From: Candidatus Hodarchaeota archaeon
GTDB taxonomy: Archaea > Asgardarchaeota > Lokiarchaeia > Sigyniarchaeales > SOKP01
NCBI GenBank assembly: GCA_048887225.1
Contig: JBHLJY010000007.1
Span: 1-64,000, forward strand
Length of the DNA stretch: 64,000 bases
Reading direction: 5' to 3'
The notes under the pieces were generated by a model. The model ran no database searches. It was not told the DNA's origin and saw nothing but the letters and a program-made list of their open reading frames with translations. Positions 2,772-47,964 of the stretch are shown here, in pieces (the stretch's first letter is position 1; each line of letters starts with the position of its first letter). Position numbers and translations under genes: made by a program.

Positions 2772-5176
2772 TGCTTCTTTATCACCTTTTTTATTTTTTG
2801 TATTAGTTTATTAGGCTTTCTCGTGCCGTTCTTAGATTTTTTAGCTATTTTTTCAGAAGTTAGCTTCTTAAGTGCCTTCTTGTTTTTATGACGGTAGAGC
2901 ACCACAATTGAGAGCGCTCCAAGGAATGCTATGAAGATACCTAATATTGGGACGATTGGAGATGGTTCTTCGAATGTAACCGCAGTCTCTTCATATTCAT
3001 CAGTTTCGACGATATTGCCAGCAACATCAACAATTTTTATATAATAAGTGATTTCAGAGCCCTCTGGTTGTGGAGGGATTTCCCCGTAATACTTTCCATC
3101 CCGTAAAACCATGCTTGTTTCTTTCCAATCACCATCATCAATTGAATAATAAAGAAAGACTTCCTTAACCTCTGCATCCTGTATTCCGGTTGCTATATTA
3201 ATGATTATCTCATAATGCTTGTCAGGATCGTCAGGTTTAATGAATTCTGGCTCAGTATATGTTGGTGGAGTTAAATCATCATTGAATATATTAAATTTTA
3301 CCCCGCCAAATCCGTTATAACGAAGTATACCCTTATAAACGAAAGTTGGTAAGCCATCATTACTTCGTATATAAAAGTTGTTAATTACACCGTATTTAAT
3401 ATCCTGAATTTTTGCATATTTATCACCATTAGGAAAAGGCCCGAGAGAACCTTGCGGGACATAGTCCAAGTCACATAATTGCCAATACATCTGCCAATAA
3501 TAAGAGTCAGTGTCGGGGATTATTAATTCATAACACCCCAGCGCAGGTTTGTATATAACGCGAAAGGGGTTTGTTATGGGGTCCCACGTGAAAGAATTTA
3601 CTGTTACCTCATCCATGATAAAATGGGCCATAAGAAAACCACCCGCAAATCCAACTTTTTTCCAGAATTCAATATTATTCGATGGGCAGGTAGCTTTCAG
3701 CGTGATTTTAGGTTCTGCTGCTTGTTTACCGTAGATTCGTACTAAAAAGGGTCCATCACCGACTTGAAAATGATCCACTTCTTTATCGTTTTGAATAAAT
3801 TTAATGTCAGTAAAAATTGTGAGTCCCAGATCCGTTACAGTGATAAGAACTGTATGCTCTTCAGAGTATCCATCAGCATCAAAAATGGTAATTGTATAAT
3901 TTACAATAACAGAAGCATAATTTTCAATGTCGATTTTTGGTATATTATATCTAATCCAAACAGCTGATTGCCATGCACCGGATTGAACTGTTTCAAATGG
4001 CCCGTTAACTGTTTCATTGCCAATAATAGTATAGTTCGATGGGTTGTTGTCAGTAGCTTTCCACTGTATATAGTACCCAAGAGTTTCATTATTAATGGTT
4101 TGAGGTGATGGAAAAACTGTAATTATTGGAACTTGTATGACTGCGGTAACAATAACAGAATCCCATATTAAGTTTCCATCTGTATCGTTAAAGTATACAG
4201 TAAAATTATAAATATTAGCATCTAAGGCTGGTATATCATATGTGACCGTGCCTGCTTCCCAAGTATCATAATAAGGAATGCCGGGAACCGAAACATTGCA
4301 AGTAACTTTAATAGCATCAGGGTTGTCGTCCCAAACGTCCCAGTCTAATGAAGCTCCAGGAGTCTTTTCATAAATGGTTTTATCTTCTGGAGTATCTATA
4401 AAATGAGGAGTATAGTCCCATTCGACAAATAATTTAGGATAATATTCGGGTTTCCCAAAGTCATAAGACCAAAAAGAAATAGCTTCCGTGACTTCAGTAC
4501 CTTCCCCCGGTCTAATCCATGCTCCAAATATACCATCCCAACCATCGAGAACTATGATTTGCTGTAGCAAATTCGAAAGATCAATAGTTTGAAGGGTTTG
4601 ATTAATGTCTTCAGTACCATCAAGCTCCCAGGTAAGATCACCTATCAGTGGTCTATTCCAAATATTTTCAACAGTGTCGGAAAAATCATTTGTTGAGGAT
4701 TGATTAAATGCACTAATGGAGGTATTAAATCCGGTCCATGGGAAGCCAAAATAAGTAAGATTTGCGACAGTTAGATTAATATAGGCTTTAATGATGCTAG
4801 CGTTGTTTGGAACAGTAATATTCCATCGGAGAATTGTTCCGATGCAAAAAGAAGGGATGCTCATAGAAGCCAATCCCAAAGTTATATTTGTATCAGTATA
4901 ACTGGTTCCAGCAACACCAACACTCCATGCATCGTCCTCAGACTGAGTTATATTGAATGTCTGATTAAATACACCAGCAGGACCTGATAGTTTAGGTAAA
5001 ATGTCGTCCTGGATTGGAGATTTTTGGTCTGGTGTGAGATTTTCCTGAGTTGGAGATTTTTGCTCTGATGTAAAAATGGTCGTGTTATTAAAGTTAGGCA
5101 ACAGCAAAATAGATATCAAAATCGAACCAAGTAAAAGTAAGGAAAGTATTTTATGACTATTCTTTAATTTTCTCAT
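2768..5176 (-). CDS. Cell-surface protein with DNRLRE-like N-terminal domain, Ig-like repeats and C-terminal membrane anchor
   Basis: Signal peptide; SEDDAW...ILRWNITVPNNASIIKAYINLT; repeated W-x2-(W/T)D(D/N)NP...YNFTVYFND/YTITIFDADG units; YYSIDDGDW...GEIPPQPEGSEITYYIKIVDVAGN; TM plus basic tail; many N-x-S/T sequons; overlaps the next gene by 4 nt. Confidence 0.65.
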   Translation of the reverse strand: MRKLKNSHKILSLLLLGSILISILLLPNFNNTTIFTSEQKSPTQENLTPDQKSPIQDDILPKLSGPAGVFNQTFNITQSEDDAWSVGVAGTSYTDTNITLGLASMSIPSFCIGTILRWNITVPNNASIIKAYINLTVANLTYFGFPWTGFNTSISAFNQSSTNDFSDTVENIWNRPLIGDLTWELDGTEDINQTLQTIDLSNLLQQIIVLDGWDGIFGAWIRPGEGTEVTEAISFWSYDFGKPEYYPKLFVEWDYTPHFIDTPEDKTIYEKTPGASLDWDVWDDNPDAIKVTCNVSVPGIPYYDTWEAGTVTYDIPALDANIYNFTVYFNDTDGNLIWDSVIVTAVIQVPIITVFPSPQTINNETLGYYIQWKATDNNPSNYTIIGNETVNGPFETVQSGAWQSAVWIRYNIPKIDIENYASVIVNYTITIFDADGYSEEHTVLITVTDLGLTIFTDIKFIQNDKEVDHFQVGDGPFLVRIYGKQAAEPKITLKATCPSNNIEFWKKVGFAGGFLMAHFIMDEVTVNSFTWDPITNPFRVIYKPALGCYELIIPDTDSYYWQMYWQLCDLDYVPQGSLGPFPNGDKYAKIQDIKYGVINNFYIRSNDGLPTFVYKGILRYNGFGGVKFNIFNDDLTPPTYTEPEFIKPDDPDKHYEIIINIATGIQDAEVKEVFLYYSIDDGDWKETSMVLRDGKYYGEIPPQPEGSEITYYIKIVDVAGNIVETDEYEETAVTFEEPSPIVPILGIFIAFLGALSIVVLYRHKNKKALKKLTSEKIAKKSKNGTRKPNKLIQKIKKVIKKQ

Positions 5177-41713: not shown

Positions 41714-43273
41714 TTAATTTACAACTTTAAAGGAAAGCCCGAGGAAAATCGGACCTCTTATATCAATCTTTTTTTGTTTGGAATGAATAAACTCTTGAAT
41801 GATATCGTCGAGTTCAATATTAACTTCTGAGGCTCGATAACACATCTTTACTCTATGATCATAAGAATTTTTACCTTGCTCAAGCATAATTTCAATATTA
41901 TATGCCATTTCTGAAGCAATCCCTTCCAAATAAGTCATTCCAGTATCAAAGCCATTGCCGGGACTTTCTTCTGGTGATAAACCTAAAATGCTTCCATCCT
42001 TTACCCAAATTTTATTTAAAGTGGCTGGACCAAGAAGTTGAACACCTTCATCTTTTTCCCAAATAGTCACATCAATATTTTTATTCTTGATTATACCATT
42101 CCATACCTTTATTTCTACTGGGGAGGAATCGTTCTTATGTTTAATAGATTTCTCAATTATAGCTTTTTTAATTTCAATTCCTATTTCAGTTAATGGAATG
42201 TATTTGTATTTAATTCCTTTACTTATTTCCTCGTCAGTAAATGAAATGTCTTCATAGAAATATGGGTACACGAGCTTTCTGATATCCTCAATTTCAGTCT
42301 TTATCATACAAATTCTTTCTACTCCGAAACCAACATTAAAAACTGGATATCCAATATTATATTGAGCAAGACTAACGGGACTATAAAATCCGCCATCACC
42401 AATCTCAATCCATTCTTTAGTTTTTGGATGCTCTACAAAAATTTCAAATTCTGTTTGGGGAGCGTAATATTTTGAAGTAGCTTTTTTTATTTCAGATTTA
42501 TTATTATTGAAACCCATTTGCTCACATATTGAAGAAACTATGTTTTGACAATCTTCTAAAGATATATTCTCCGCCATTATTACTAAAGATAAAGTATGAG
42601 AATCATATAAATGAGTGGCATCTATTTTCTGTTCTCTACGAAATTTAGGGCCAATTGTAAAATATTGAAGTGGTAAATTCTTTCTCTTACTCAAATTACT
42701 CAATACTTTAAACCATAATGCTGTTGTATGGCTTCTAAGGGTATTTTTAGTAGGAATTGGTTTAAGATTTTTTAATTCTGGAAATATTTTATCAATGATT
42801 TCAGAGGCTTCGCTTTCTTTTATTTTTAATTCATTTAAAAAAATCTCAATTAAATCATCCGCTTCAATATCCCCTTTTTTATATTTTCTAAAAATATCTT
42901 GTAATGAATCGATTTTATCGAAATTGGGGATTATAGATTGAATCTTTTCGATTTTCTCTTTTGAAATCCCGATATCCGGACGGGGAAGCCCCGCTAAATA
43001 AAATAATCGGTCGAGGATTAATGCGGCTTCTGGACCATATTGTTTATATATCTCATTCTCTTCAACGAACATTGGTAATACTAATTCTTCAAATCCTAAC
43101 CCAATCATTTTGCGTCTGGCTTCTGCGATAAATTCATAAACAGGGTGAGCCAGACCTTTTTTTTCTAAATTAAAAAGATTTCCTTTTAAATTTAGAAGAT
43201 TTCTAGATTCTAACCAAGCTCTCTCATAATTCTTTTTTGCATCTCTTTTTATTTTTTCAATGTCAAAAGGCAT
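41714..43273 (-). CDS. sepS: O-phosphoseryl-tRNA(Cys) synthetase (SepRS)
   Basis: IYKQYGPEAALILDRLFYLAGLPRPDIG, TLRSHTT, FRREQKIDATHL, SKYYAPQTEFE, YPVFNVGFGVER, IDIRGPIF. Confidence 0.95.
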   Translation of the reverse strand: MPFDIEKIKRDAKKNYERAWLESRNLLNLKGNLFNLEKKGLAHPVYEFIAEARRKMIGLGFEELVLPMFVEENEIYKQYGPEAALILDRLFYLAGLPRPDIGISKEKIEKIQSIIPNFDKIDSLQDIFRKYKKGDIEADDLIEIFLNELKIKESEASEIIDKIFPELKNLKPIPTKNTLRSHTTALWFKVLSNLSKRKNLPLQYFTIGPKFRREQKIDATHLYDSHTLSLVIMAENISLEDCQNIVSSICEQMGFNNNKSEIKKATSKYYAPQTEFEIFVEHPKTKEWIEIGDGGFYSPVSLAQYNIGYPVFNVGFGVERICMIKTEIEDIRKLVYPYFYEDISFTDEEISKGIKYKYIPLTEIGIEIKKAIIEKSIKHKNDSSPVEIKVWNGIIKNKNIDVTIWEKDEGVQLLGPATLNKIWVKDGSILGLSPEESPGNGFDTGMTYLEGIASEMAYNIEIMLEQGKNSYDHRVKMCYRASEVNIELDDIIQEFIHSKQKKIDIRGPIFLGLSFKVVN

Positions 43274-43300
43274 TATTTCTCTTTAACTTTTTTAATTATG

Positions 43301-43921
43301 TTAATCGAATTTTATTTTATCATCAATACACTCTTTTAACTCAGATATTCTAAGTGTTAATGAAATGTCTCCTCTTGTTTTTTCAATAATATTTCTTCCC
43401 ACATCAATTTTATGCCTTAAATCTTGAGTTATTCCTGAAGGGTAATCTAAAGAAAATAAGTTTGTATAAATTTCGTCCATATCTTCTAAAATATTATTTA
43501 AATCATCAATTCGAGAATTCCTAATGTTATCTAATGCGTACCGCCGTAATTCTCCTATTACATCTGCTAAGCCTAATAAATAATGAAGAGAGTTTACATT
43601 TAATTCATTAGAGGTTGGCAAGGATAAATTATTGACAATTGAATAAAAGCAAACTGCTTCTGCATATTCTTGTTCAGGAGTTTTTAAGTATTTAAAAAAA
43701 ATTCCAGGATTTTTATTGACCAAATTTGTGAGAGCTTTCAATTTTAATTTAACTTGGTCAATTTTTTCTTTATAAATATTAAATTCCTTTCTATGAATTG
43801 ATTTAATCGCAATGCTACAATTTCGTATTATTTTGCGAGAAATTCTTAATATCTCCTCTCGATCTTTATCAAGTTCATCTAAACCTTTCGTAATTTCTGA
43901 AAAAATATTTTTAAGATTCAT
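43301..43921 (-). CDS. Translin/TRAX family RNase (archaeal C3PO-like)
   Basis: DKDREEILRISRKI, QEYAEA, YLLGLADVIGELRR, LRHKID. Confidence 0.9.
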   Translation of the reverse strand: MNLKNIFSEITKGLDELDKDREEILRISRKIIRNCSIAIKSIHRKEFNIYKEKIDQVKLKLKALTNLVNKNPGIFFKYLKTPEQEYAEAVCFYSIVNNLSLPTSNELNVNSLHYLLGLADVIGELRRYALDNIRNSRIDDLNNILEDMDEIYTNLFSLDYPSGITQDLRHKIDVGRNIIEKTRGDISLTLRISELKECIDDKIKFD

Positions 43922-44045
43922 ATGAATAACTAGATAACTTGGAAATTATTAAAATTTTTAATTAATATAATTAATTAACAAAAGTAAGTAAAATATTTAG
44001 AATTTATCAAAAATATAGTTTAACAAATAAACTAAAGAGATAATC

Positions 44046-44114
44046 GTGAAAATCTTATTAATTCATTCCGATGGAGTGTTCCTTATCTCGAATATATTTA
44101 TAAGCGATTTTTAA
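44046..44114 (+). pseudogene. Orphan 5' fragment of thrS (11 codons), followed by unrelated sequence and a stop
   Basis: GTG AAA ATC TTA TTA ATT CAT TCC GAT GGA GTG (MKILLIHSDGV) versus thrS start MKMLLIHSDGV at 45907-45939; 28/33 nt identical. Confidence 0.8.
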
Positions 44115-45906
44115 CCTTAATCTTCTTTATAAATCAATTATTTTATTAGGTGTTCACATTTTTAATATTAATTTAATATTACATAACCCTGTGTAATGTT
44201 TTCTCTAAAGTAGTAAGAAGTAAAATTATATATAGACATAATCATAAAATATATTCGGTGGTTAAGGTGTTTGAAAAACCACAAAAAAAATTATTTTGTT
44301 CAAATCCGAATATATGCCAGAAGAAAAAAAAAAGAAAACAGAATGTGCAGATGATCCTTTTTTATTAAGTAAAGCTAACGAAATTTGTAATGCGAGCGAC
44401 CATATTGATGAATATCCAAGTTCCCCAATCCAAACCTCTAAAGATTTTATTGAGGGTACCCCTTATATTAACTTGGGAAAACCAATTGAGGATTTAACAC
44501 CGAAGGAATTCAAGGAATCTTATAAGGGCGTATATTCTAACCTCTTTAAGTTCGTAAAAGATCGCCATAATATCGATTTAGGTATCATGACTCGAGATGG
44601 TTTAACTAAGTTAATAAGAAAAATGAATTATTATGGTATAATTTATAATTTTACTCAGATAAAAGATGGAGAAGGGAACGATATTCATTATGGCCCCAGT
44701 TGGGTAAAAGATGATAAAAAAGTTATCGCTGGATTTCATCGAATTGGTCGAGCAATTAATATAGAGGATCGGAAAACTTTATATAAGAGAGAAAAAACTG
44801 GAAAACATTTTGAGAATACATTCCAAAAATTAGGTCCTAGAGCATTTAATTTTAATTTTTTAGCGGTTTGTAAAAATGAACAAGAATATAAAGCTACTGA
44901 ATATTTTTGGCAATTATATTTTAATAGAGAGGAAAATGAAGATGGTTATGATTTACGAAATAATGGCAATTTTAATAATAGATTAGGAAGTATGTATGAT
45001 AATATTTCAAATCTAATTTTACCCAAATATTATTTAGTAAGAGATATCTTATATGGCTTAGACAAATTCGAATTAGATGAGAGATATAAAAATTTAAAGG
45101 GTATAATCTCCGTTAAACAAGCATTAATACATAATTTTGGGATAGAGTCTATTTTTAAAATAAGGGCTATGTTAGTCGCTCCTTTATTAGATTATAATCT
45201 TAAAAGAGGGTTAACCGAGCAAGAAAATATTGAAAAATTGATAGAGTCTGGTTTTGGAATGTTTGATAAAAATCTAATACAGGAGAGGAGTAGAGAGTAT
45301 GGTCCATCCTCAACAAGGACAAATCCCAAGAATCTTTTTCAAAGAATACTCGTATATACGTACGGTCCCCCTAGAATCCGACCTAGTAGAGTCTTTACTC
45401 ATTATGAGCAACTTAGAAAAGAGAATTTCTTTGAACCATTCATAGAGTATCTTAAAGATTTAAATATTGCCGAAATAATTGGTGAATCACAAAACGATCA
45501 AAATACGCTTTCTATTGTAGATTATTTATTTGAAAAATGTCTTTCACCTACTTATATAGTTAAATATTTAGGATACAAAGGGAGTGAGGCAGAATTATTA
45601 ATAAATAAAATAAACAATTACTTGAATAGGAGATGGAGACCTTTGATAGAGCAGTTTTCTTGGGATAAACTCAGATTATTCCTTAAATTCCATCCATTAA
45701 TAATTTCCACACATAAAGTATACTCTAAATATTTATAAAAAGTTTATAGATGATATTGCATTTCATTTTAGAGTTAATTATGATTCAATTGCTCAAATAA
45801 ACAGAATCCTTACTTAATACTTTTTTATTTAAAATTCAATATTAAAAAAATTTATCATTTATATTAGATTCATAGGATATATATAATTATTTGGTGTTTG
45901 TTGCAT
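44079..45906 (+). mobile_element. Putative free-standing homing-endonuclease insertion at the thrS 5' end
   Basis: About 1.83 kb bracketed by the two thrS-start copies; contains a single GIY-YIG-like ORF; interrupts a divergent translin/thrS housekeeping arrangement. Confidence 0.6.
44296..45738 (+). CDS. GIY-YIG (I-TevI-like) endonuclease domain protein with long helical C-terminal region; likely ATG start at 44314
   Basis: YYGIIYNFT...HRIGRAINIEDRKTLY...HFENTFQKLGPRAFNFNFLAVC...EYKATEYFWQLYF...DGYDL at 44635-44955 follows the GIY / YIG / R / F-x-F / E-x-FW / GYN order. Confidence 0.62.
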   Translation: MFKSEYMPEEKKKKTECADDPFLLSKANEICNASDHIDEYPSSPIQTSKDFIEGTPYINLGKPIEDLTPKEFKESYKGVYSNLFKFVKDRHNIDLGIMTRDGLTKLIRKMNYYGIIYNFTQIKDGEGNDIHYGPSWVKDDKKVIAGFHRIGRAINIEDRKTLYKREKTGKHFENTFQKLGPRAFNFNFLAVCKNEQEYKATEYFWQLYFNREENEDGYDLRNNGNFNNRLGSMYDNISNLILPKYYLVRDILYGLDKFELDERYKNLKGIISVKQALIHNFGIESIFKIRAMLVAPLLDYNLKRGLTEQENIEKLIESGFGMFDKNLIQERSREYGPSSTRTNPKNLFQRILVYTYGPPRIRPSRVFTHYEQLRKENFFEPFIEYLKDLNIAEIIGESQNDQNTLSIVDYLFEKCLSPTYIVKYLGYKGSEAELLINKINNYLNRRWRPLIEQFSWDKLRLFLKFHPLIISTHKVYSKYL

Positions 45907-47964
45907 ATGAAAATGTTATTAATTCATTCAGATGGCGTAGAAGTAAGGAAACACAAAGAGGCAACAAGCAATCCTCAAGAGTTTTCTGAAGATTTCATAA
46001 AATTGGATGGTTTAATACTTATAGCTTATGTTTCTATCGAAGACCAAGATACATATGACACAGATATAATAGCTAAACAAGGAGCTGATGTTATAGAAGA
46101 AGCAATTTTCCTTATTACAGGGTTCCCTGAAAAAATACGTCAAAGGAATGAAGAAATAAGAGAACATAACCGAAAAGTAGAAGAAGGTAAAATAAAAGGA
46201 AAACCAAGAAAATATCTTGAATTAATCGCTGGAAGGGATAAATACATTGTTGACAAAGTATTAGTTTATCCATGGGCACATTTAAGTAAATTTTTAAGTC
46301 AAGATCCAAATGCGGCGGAAGTATGCCCAAAAATAGCTAAAATCTTAGAATCTAAAGGAATTAAGTCAAAATTCTCTCCATTTGGATGGTATAAATCTTT
46401 TAAAATTAATTGTATCGGGCATGAAGTAGCTGAAATGTATAGAGATGTAAAGCTTTATATTCAGCCAGAAGAACATTTGCAAAAGGCTCAATTTTTTGTA
46501 ATTACTCCAGAAGGAAAAGAAATAAAAATTCAAATAGATGACAATAAAGAAGTTTTGCCAATAAAAGAAGTCGATGAGGATTTTAATTTATTTATTAAAT
46601 CAGAATTAGGTGTTAGAAGAGCTGATCTCGGAGAAGAACCACCGCATATTAAGATAATGAAAAAGTTTGAGCTAATTGATTTCGAAAAAAATTCTGATAG
46701 TGGGAACTTGCGTTGGTATCCTAAGGGTGTAATTATGAAGAACCTTATCAAAAATTATTTAGATGAGAAGTTAATTGATTTTGGAGCAATTCTAGTTGAT
46801 ACACCTATTATGTATACCGTAAAAAGCAAGAAATTAACTGCCCAAACTGCGAGATTTCCAGCCAGAACATATTGGGTTGAATCAGGAAATAATCGATTTT
46901 TACTAAGATTTGCTGGGGATTTCCTCCAATTTGATATGTTTAGTGGAATGAACTTGAAACCTTCCTATTTCCCTCTAAAATTATATGAATATGAGCAGTA
47001 TGATTTCAGGAGGGAGAAAGAAGGAGAATTAACTGGTTTAAGGCGATTAAGAGGCTTTGTCATGCCAGATTTTCATACTCTGTGCAAGGATTTGGATTCA
47101 TCTGTTGAAGAATTTAAGAAACAATATGACTTAGATCAACAAGTTGCCGAGGATTTAGGAATTAAAGATCACTTAATTTTCAGGACAACACACGATTTTT
47201 ACAAAAAAAATAAAGGTTGGATTAAGGAATTAGTAAAAAAAGAAAACAAACCTGCTTTATTGGAACTCTGGGATGATAGGTATTATTATTTTGTTTTGAA
47301 GTTTGAAAGAGGAGTACTTTCCGCTCAAGATAAAAGCGGTACTCTCGCAACAATTCAAATTGATGTTGAAAGTACTTTAGAATATTTAGAAGATAAAGAT
47401 GGCAAAAAGAGACAAAAATATAATATTTACTTTACTGATGATGATGGGATTAAAAAGCATCCAATTATTCTTCACAATTCACCTTCAGGAGGTTTGGAGA
47501 GAGTGTTATGGGGGCTAATTGAAACAGCAATCAGAGAAAAGGATAAAATAGTTCCAGGGTTTAAAACGTGGTTATCTCCAATCCAAATAAGAGTAATAAC
47601 TGTCAGTAATAATCAGAACGAATACGCTGGAAAAATAATGCAAATTCTTAATGATCAAGGTTATAGAGCGGATTTCGATGATCGCGAAGAAAAAATAGGA
47701 AAAAAAATAAGACTAGCAGAAATTGAATGGATTCCTTATATAGTAATTGTAGGTAAAACAGAACAAGAGAATGAAACTATTTCTCTTCGTAAAAGATTAA
47801 TCGGACAACCGTTTGGCCCAAAAGGGAATACATCAGAGCAGTTAAAGAATATTCAACTAGAAAAGTTTTTAGAACTCCTTGAAAAAGATACGAAAGGATT
47901 TCCTAAATACAAGCTTCCGATACCATTTAGAAGGACTTCAACTAAAATATTCTTTCGTCGCTAG
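45907..47964 (+). CDS. thrS: Threonine--tRNA ligase, archaeal type with N-terminal editing domain
   Basis: MLLIHSD, YPWAHLS, PFGWYKSF, CIGH, FRREKEGELTGLRRLRGFVMPDFHT, ILHNSPSGGLER, WLSPIQIR; ATG at 45907 preferred (GGTG upstream). Confidence 0.96.
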   Translation: MKMLLIHSDGVEVRKHKEATSNPQEFSEDFIKLDGLILIAYVSIEDQDTYDTDIIAKQGADVIEEAIFLITGFPEKIRQRNEEIREHNRKVEEGKIKGKPRKYLELIAGRDKYIVDKVLVYPWAHLSKFLSQDPNAAEVCPKIAKILESKGIKSKFSPFGWYKSFKINCIGHEVAEMYRDVKLYIQPEEHLQKAQFFVITPEGKEIKIQIDDNKEVLPIKEVDEDFNLFIKSELGVRRADLGEEPPHIKIMKKFELIDFEKNSDSGNLRWYPKGVIMKNLIKNYLDEKLIDFGAILVDTPIMYTVKSKKLTAQTARFPARTYWVESGNNRFLLRFAGDFLQFDMFSGMNLKPSYFPLKLYEYEQYDFRREKEGELTGLRRLRGFVMPDFHTLCKDLDSSVEEFKKQYDLDQQVAEDLGIKDHLIFRTTHDFYKKNKGWIKELVKKENKPALLELWDDRYYYFVLKFERGVLSAQDKSGTLATIQIDVESTLEYLEDKDGKKRQKYNIYFTDDDGIKKHPIILHNSPSGGLERVLWGLIETAIREKDKIVPGFKTWLSPIQIRVITVSNNQNEYAGKIMQILNDQGYRADFDDREEKIGKKIRLAEIEWIPYIVIVGKTEQENETISLRKRLIGQPFGPKGNTSEQLKNIQLEKFLELLEKDTKGFPKYKLPIPFRRTSTKIFFRR

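Follow-up and report, generated by a model that had tools for sequence, protein, structure and literature searches.

A Candidatus Hodarchaeota archaeon of the class Lokiarchaeia (assembly GCA_048887225.1) carries the start of its threonyl-tRNA synthetase (ThrRS) gene, thrS, twice in the first 64,000 nucleotides (nt) of contig JBHLJY010000007.1 (positions 1 to 64,000, referred to here as the window), and between the two starts lies a 1,861-bp insert that encodes a predicted GIY-YIG endonuclease. We interpret the insert as a free-standing homing-endonuclease cassette that replaces the end of the gene it enters, a reading to which we assign a probability of about 0.68. It is built on the insert itself, on junctions that fall within a 14-nt core, on alleles of relatives in which the insert is missing, on the fold of the encoded protein, and on the presence of the same architecture at other genes. 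We infer, in addition, that thrS would be the target of cleavage and that the sequence changes would provide immunity.

Two Copies of the thrS Start

A first-pass annotation of the window, made from the letters alone, had placed two copies of the first 11 codons of thrS at 44046-44078 and 45907-45939 and had considered the left copy dead. Our measurements were identical: pairwise comparison gave identity at 28 of 33 positions, the left frame closes at a TAA (44112-44114), and the right copy is the start of a complete gene for an archaeal-type ThrRS. Because the stub ends in a stop codon and thrS is complete downstream with a start of its own, the insert is free-standing and lies in neither an intron nor an intein. 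The mismatches (positions 1, 9, 24, 30, and 33) do fall, as had been described, on the first base of the start codon and on third codon positions, but the one at position 9 is not silent, as it exchanges isoleucine for methionine. Elsewhere in the 3.27-Mb genome no sequence matches the thrS start at more than 24 of 33 positions, and the 14-nt core shared by the two copies occurs just these two times. The fear that the duplicated start might be an assembly artefact is countered by a Logan unitig: 3,224 nt long and derived from the probable source sample, it covers 43226-46449 with zero differences. The unitig is an independent assembly, though not an independent sample, and its agreement across the insert counts against an artefact of the present assembly.

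Empty Alleles Place Both Junctions Within a 14-nt Core

The prediction that relatives would have an uninterrupted thrS start was borne out. The insert is missing from a congener (G002), whose two flanks are 95-96% identical to those in the window, and from runs X2 and X5 (from two studies), in which 44054 is joined to 45916, so that 1,861 nt are skipped and 14 letters fit on either side. Identity to the congener holds at 91-100% right up to both junctions. At codon 3 the empty allele reads ATC, like the left copy; its codons 8, 10, and 11 are those of the right copy. Thus, both junctions lie inside the 14-nt core (TTATTAATTCATTC; left copy at 44055-44068, right copy at 45916-45929, both on the + strand), which corresponds to thrS codons 4-8, and not after 44078, where the joint had been expected.

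The cassette can accordingly be drawn as 44069-45929 (27.6% GC, single copy), with a placement that is ambiguous by 14 nt. Past the core, its left end consists of 10 nt of synonymous thrS variants; its right end consists of a 168-nt spacer (45739-45906, + strand), which is absent from empty alleles, followed by ATG AAA ATG (45907-45915, + strand), which encodes Met-Lys-Met in place of Met-Lys-Ile (Ile3Met). This structure overturns the claim that the intact thrS is a recoded copy. The working gene equals the empty allele of the congener from codon 4 on, and the synonymous variants (TCC, GGA, and GTG) are located in the dead stub (44046-44078, + strand), which is native to 44068 and whose final 10 nt came with the cassette. 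The cassette does supply a new 5' end for thrS in the form of an upstream region and the ATG AAA ATG start, but there is no recoding beyond codon 3. The differing bases are, as had been argued, of coding origin: the variants in the stub tail occur naturally among the 55 thrS starts that we examined, and the joined cassette ends match the thrS start of one relative (G154) at 31 of 33 positions (the chance of a 7/10 match to the stub tail, calculated post hoc, is p about 0.003).

Occupied thrS starts are few, with two among about 110 genomes of the family in which translin and thrS lie on one contig, and a donor for either spacer was not found in 134 genomes of the family, nor was a homolog of the replacement upstream region at 45739-45906. 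The survey of occupied starts relied on gene spacing, since scanning for duplicates of the thrS start with a degenerate pattern proved too loose. The distance from translin to thrS is usually about 80-190 bp in the family; the wider gaps of four genomes (G057, G014, G056, and G058) contain no second thrS start, and a partial thrS on contig C68 of G013, considered as a stub, was rejected as the end of a contig.

The Insert Encodes a Protein with a Predicted GIY-YIG Fold

The insert holds only one open reading frame (ORF) of more than 60 aa, in agreement with the first-pass annotation. It runs from 44296 to 45738 on the + strand and encodes 480 aa from a TTG, or 474 aa from the ATG at 44314. The ORF itself has no match in Pfam and no sequence match in the PDB, and a Foldseek search with a model of the whole protein was uninformative. 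The proposed GIY-YIG fold emerged instead from a model of the nuclease domain (residues ~113-230, 44632-44985, + strand; predicted local distance difference test score, 88), whose best match is I-TevI (1ln0; Z 8.8, root-mean-square deviation 2.6, 85 of 92 residues aligned). Structures ranked 1-9 are all of the GIY-YIG type, with UvrC, EndoII, and other GIY-YIG domains following I-TevI, and the top Foldseek match of the domain model is 1mk0 (probability 0.98, E 0.048). On the strength of these models, the product of the ORF evidently carries a GIY-YIG fold; that it is an active endonuclease is probable.

The expected motifs can be recognized as G114-I-I-Y117, R149-I-G151, R159, H171, E202, and G217-Y-D219, the catalytic positions having been assigned by alignment and not by three-dimensional superposition. 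Among 22 alignment rows, Y117, G151, R159, and E202 are conserved, with the glycine and arginine invariant and the tyrosine and glutamate present in at least 90%, and the arginine, glutamate, and glycine are kept across homologs that are only 35-45% identical. Pfam family PF01541 is matched by four of 19 members of the nuclease family, and the distant sequence matches are canonical phage-type GIY-YIG proteins. Relatives are few: in a set of 1.8 billion representatives, 16 clusters match at E<1e-10.

The domain is followed by a helical C-terminal region (45004-45702, + strand) that resembles AraC-like tandem helix-turn-helix (HTH) motifs and LuxR-like HTH motifs (Z 5-6 to AraC domains and about 4 to LuxR-type domains, which are middling scores) and that, to judge from the model, is a putative DNA-binding arm. 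The order of nuclease first and DNA-binding arm second is that of I-TevI.

A 10-bp inverted repeat (44249-44315, + strand) has a right arm that overlaps the ATG at 44314 (z -2.1, 6 of 200 shuffles) and could, as a weak possibility, form a translational-repression hairpin or an operator; it recalls, on weak evidence, the hairpins that repress endonuclease genes in T4 (PMC2988022). A 9-nt word recurs around the ORF start at 44089-44097, 44249-44258, and 44306-44315, twice directly and once inverted, and may be part of an operator or hairpin. A sigma-70 promoter scan (21 sites versus 14.6 expected) was discarded as inapplicable to archaea, and among the datasets listed as containing the locus none is of RNA.

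The Same Layout Appears at Other Conserved Genes

Homologs of the nuclease appear from sequence searches to be rare and patchy: matches occur in 30 of 161 genomes of the class, and in nine of 161 at E<1e-30, at conserved loci that are unrelated to one another. The relatives that carry them are labelled Promethearchaeota/Promethearchaeia, the nuclease gene is single-copy in the host genome, and relatives in viral contigs were not found. The search that had been suggested for homologs beside other duplicated gene ends was successful, and by comparison of these loci the same cassette layout appears to recur at several Asgard genes, namely rpS27ae (in G152 and G116) and fwdA (in L228 and G074).

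At rpS27ae, the intact last codons of the gene stand on one side of the cassette and a dead copy, about 27 nt long, on the other, and close relatives of both carriers are empty. The nuclease parts of the two carriers are 96-99% identical, whereas the flanks, including Kae1/Bud32, are 84-95% identical; the flanks of G152 are closest to those of the empty G141 (about 97%), and the flanks of G116 to those of the empty G135 (about 95%). In addition, the spacer and the Kae1 start resemble those of a third lineage. Since the nuclease part is more alike than the flanks, which are nearest to those of empty relatives, this sister cassette evidently moved laterally between species with co-conversion, in keeping with the import between lineages that had been suggested for thrS. 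In L228, a remnant of a family member at fwdA is bordered by a second fwdA 3' end of 457 nt with 81% identity, and a similar duplicated end in G074 adjoins a scaffold gap. At thrS, rpS27ae, and fwdA alike, the 3' end of the ORF faces the intact gene.

Several features of these loci merit mention in their own right. The fwdA gene (Amidohydro_3) is the commonest neighbour of the family, on either side (L037, L040, L079, L082, L121, and L228), and in L040, L121, and L228 it is broken into two frames, by a frameshift or a small intron. Some members have N-terminal extensions of 450-1,650 aa, several of them acidic and repetitive (L077:6076-10188, L076:5408-9496, L121:3-6371, and L079:2572-5331); the extension in L121 contains a ubiquitin/SUMO-like domain (residues 1559-1623). 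The rpS27ae gene of G152 has a 30-nt insert with stop codons at HYDR/SSCG (approximately L077:5793-5822), and related inserts are found at the same place in L114 (G147) and L116 (G123); they are candidates for a bulge-helix-bulge mRNA intron. In L040, a 43-nt direct repeat (1692-1734 and 4604-4646, 93% identical) upstream of a family member brackets several small ORFs. The contig analyzed here holds, outside the window, a 104-aa GIY-YIG frame (G000:C7:94825-95049) and a 612-aa GIY-YIG frame (G000:C7:125049-125993) that adjoins a tyrosine-recombinase match. A tree of the family was poorly resolved, with one row (G034) probably cut out of frame, and was not used.

An Unrelated Nuclease at the Same thrS Codons

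The second occupied thrS start is in a genome of another genus (G081), in which a 9-codon thrS stub is followed by a decayed zinc-ribbon endonuclease and then by an intact thrS (L139:368-1540 / L179). This nuclease matches PHROG 559, 681, and 9084, is unrelated to the GIY-YIG family, and is, by our own reading of its motif, PD-(D/E)xK-like. The stub and upstream DNA match those of an empty relative (G080), and the first ~370 nt of the working thrS are only 71-80% identical to that relative, versus about 96% elsewhere. A native stub combined with a foreign 5' part of about 370 nt makes this thrS a true gene hybrid, and comparison of the two loci indicates that the PD-(D/E)xK-like nuclease probably invaded the thrS start independently. 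Its family has matches in 59 of 135 genomes of the family, and there are no flank repeats at most PD-(D/E)xK-like loci. At one of its loci (G021, L204:858-3081), the nuclease is flanked by a 373-nt diverged duplicate of a gene 3' end.

Neighbouring Features in the Window

The conserved left neighbour of thrS, divergent from it, is a translin-family gene (43301-43921, - strand; PF01997). Between the two lies the native translin-thrS spacer (43922-44045; 94-100% identical to the empty allele of the congener), which holds the original upstream signals of thrS and now precedes the stub. In the replacement upstream region, a TATA-like run at 45878 and a GGTG at 45893 are candidate signals only. The intact thrS gene (45907-47964, + strand) has matches to PF08915, PF00587, and PF03129 and is 96.5% identical to that of the congener. 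On the other side of translin, a 519-aa gene (41714-43273), which may encode O-phosphoseryl-tRNA synthetase, is absent from this position in G081. In G058, translin and the archaeal thrS are separated by a second ThrRS gene (L165:702-2342, a 547-aa frame), which is presumably bacterial, judging from its N-terminal motif.

A Model for Gene-End Replacement and Its Alternatives

We propose that the enzyme would bind a long site via its C-terminal HTH arm and would cut alleles that are still unoccupied, in or close to the thrS start. Such a break would then be mended from the occupied allele of a related lineage, with the left end pairing with the donor stub and the right end with the donor thrS start, both within the conserved core, so that the cassette and 9-10 donor bases per side would be copied in. 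The 3' spacer of the cassette and its ATG AAA ATG would restart thrS, and the essential gene would survive; indeed, it is the upstream region and start supplied by the cassette that would keep thrS working. Neither junction recreates the empty site, and recutting should stop. The native promoter and stub, which now aim into the nuclease ORF, may drive expression of the nuclease.

Several observations weigh against this model. A single crossover with a circle would yield identical junctions; a second holder of the GIY-YIG cassette at thrS was not found; and there is no long co-conversion tract at thrS, only 9-10 nt on each side. With neither a long tract nor a second holder, homing at thrS is argued from the sister loci. 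There, the codon changes between the nucleases of G152 and G116 (10 synonymous and 17 nonsynonymous) give a weak dN/dS-like signal, and most homolog loci with both flanks have no flank duplication, which makes gene-end duplication a recurrent, not a universal, feature of the family. Finally, throughout the close family YIG reads RIG (Arg149) and the terminal Asn is an Asp (Asp219).

These atypical active-site motifs keep in play the alternative that foreign DNA carrying a nuclease gene and a related thrS start was simply patched in by microhomology or homologous recombination, the protein being a DNA binder that does not cut or one that cuts elsewhere, for example at fwdA. The many homologs without duplications and the prominence of fwdA, which neighbours six homolog loci, are in keeping with this view. 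We consider it unlikely, however, given the conservation of the arginine, glutamate, and glycine noted above, the existence of Asn-to-Asp as a known GIY-YIG variant, seen also in COG1833 (PMC1564403), the shared orientation of ORF, stub, and intact copy at three genes, and the choice of the same thrS site by a second, unrelated nuclease. Rather improbable, too, is integration of the Campbell type, in which a small circle with an 11-codon thrS attachment (att) site would have entered by one crossover in the 14-nt core, catalyzed in trans by a host tyrosine recombinase or RadA, with the nuclease as cargo or accessory. The junctions do resemble attL and attR, the joined ends read as one 33-nt piece of thrS, there is no co-conversion outside those 33 nt, and the genome encodes three PF00589 matches outside the insert. 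Nevertheless, the insert is without a recombinase, the sister loci, at unrelated sequences, have duplications of anything from about 27 to 457 nt, and the foreign flanking tracts of G152 and G081 are unlike the outcome of a single att crossover. Nor is the reverse (circle) joint among those listed for the source run, although contigs drop rare forms.

We give very little credence to the idea that a transposition-like event made a fresh 33-bp target-site duplication whose dead copy then underwent neutral decay or hairpin-driven change, a possibility that the first-pass annotation had likewise disfavoured. A direct repeat does flank the insert, and the stub can be folded into a stem of 6 pairs, closed by a 3-nt loop, which its three changes complete. 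But all of these changes are clustered in the final 10 nt (p 0.02), occupy third positions (p 0.03; both post hoc), and equal natural thrS codons; those in the stem affect both of its arms and preserve a G-T pair, unlike the product of one template switch; and the region folds no better than shuffled sequences (z -0.55). Moreover, as had been reported, no integrase, transposase, or terminal inverted repeat is present within the insert, and a second copy is lacking. Just as improbable is a defence or polymorphic-toxin nuclease tip recombining into variable loci. Several homologs do form the C-terminal part of proteins of 900-2,100 aa whose N-termini are acidic, and small ORFs come after some of them, but the insert contains no immunity-like ORF, the HTH arm follows the nuclease, and the duplicated gene ends would be left unexplained.

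Discussion

If homing with gene-end replacement is the correct explanation for the thrS insert, it may exemplify a general class of intron-less homing cassettes in Lokiarchaeia. Unrelated nucleases, namely the RIG-type GIY-YIG family and the zinc-ribbon PD-(D/E)xK-like family, would in that case have converged on conserved gene ends, identical codons of thrS among them; they would cross from species to species by way of homology as short as 14 nt and exchange gene ends and promoters between lineages, and RIG/GYD would be a working catalytic variant. We advance this generalization tentatively and hold it somewhat less probable than its negation. The principle of gene-end replacement by an endonuclease is already known and is not new; what would be added is its extension from fungal mitochondria to Asgard archaeal chromosomes, and a literature search, in which most subscription papers were outside reach, found no archaeal report of such an arrangement. 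The process would imply that Lokiarchaeia often encounter DNA of other species and often repair breaks, and it would provide a route for swapping the promoters and termini of essential genes, as in the hybrid thrS of G081. The analysis also brings to light an uncharacterised GIY-YIG family whose active site is altered and for which a candidate target can be defined.

The arrangement bears comparison with several known systems. The insert does not have the transposase, terminal inverted repeats, or multiple copies of an insertion sequence (IS) element or DNA transposon. The elements e14 and phage 21, which integrate at icd, restore the gene they enter. As with the thrS cassette, a short core is duplicated and the element supplies the displaced gene end, but e14 and phage 21 encode an integrase and are much larger than the 1.9-kb thrS insert, which has none. 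Homing-endonuclease-like genes outside introns are known from archaeal chromosomes, in the form of free-standing LAGLIDADG genes in the glycosylation islands of Haloferax (PMC5867893) and the HeimM2 element of Heimdallarchaeum (PMC8813620). These belong to other nuclease families, however, and a duplicated or replaced end of a protein gene has not been described for them; GIY-YIG is unmentioned in a paper on Asgard mobile elements.

Closer parallels are the SegA-G proteins of phage T4, free-standing GIY-YIG endonucleases that carry out intronless homing (PMC2988022). Like the cassette family, they are nearest to I-TevI, have no intron or intein, and are patchily distributed beside conserved genes, and their co-conversion of flanks has a counterpart at the sister loci. 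In contrast, seg genes lie between other genes and their products cut at a distance of hundreds to thousands of bp, whereas the thrS cassette lies inside a gene start and duplicates it, and its protein departs from I-TevI in having RIG and GYD motifs, an insertion of 28 residues, and a C-terminal part that is large and helical.

Closest in outcome are the mobile open reading frames (mORFs) that form gene hybrids in fungal mitochondria, at atp6 of Allomyces macrogynus and at atp6, atp9 (GIY-YIG), cox2, and nad3 of Glomus (PMC3630166). In both cases, an intron-less endonuclease ORF sits in a conserved gene together with a replacement piece and a stranded native piece, close relatives have empty alleles, and the duplicate is partly foreign. 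But the mORFs are mitochondrial and replace carboxy termini, whereas the thrS cassette is in an archaeal chromosome and replaces a 5' end along with its upstream region, and the piece replaced is very short (3 codons plus the core). Unlike the stranded piece of an mORF hybrid, the thrS stub is a mosaic of host and donor, native through the core and foreign in its tail, and the working copy is foreign only upstream and in codons 1-3; it is in G081 that the mORF pattern of a foreign working piece and a native stranded piece is seen in full. The sister loci at gene 3' ends differ further in that the ORF is antisense to the host gene. The thrS cassette would work like the mORF hybrids and like the intronless homing of T4, yet it belongs to neither.

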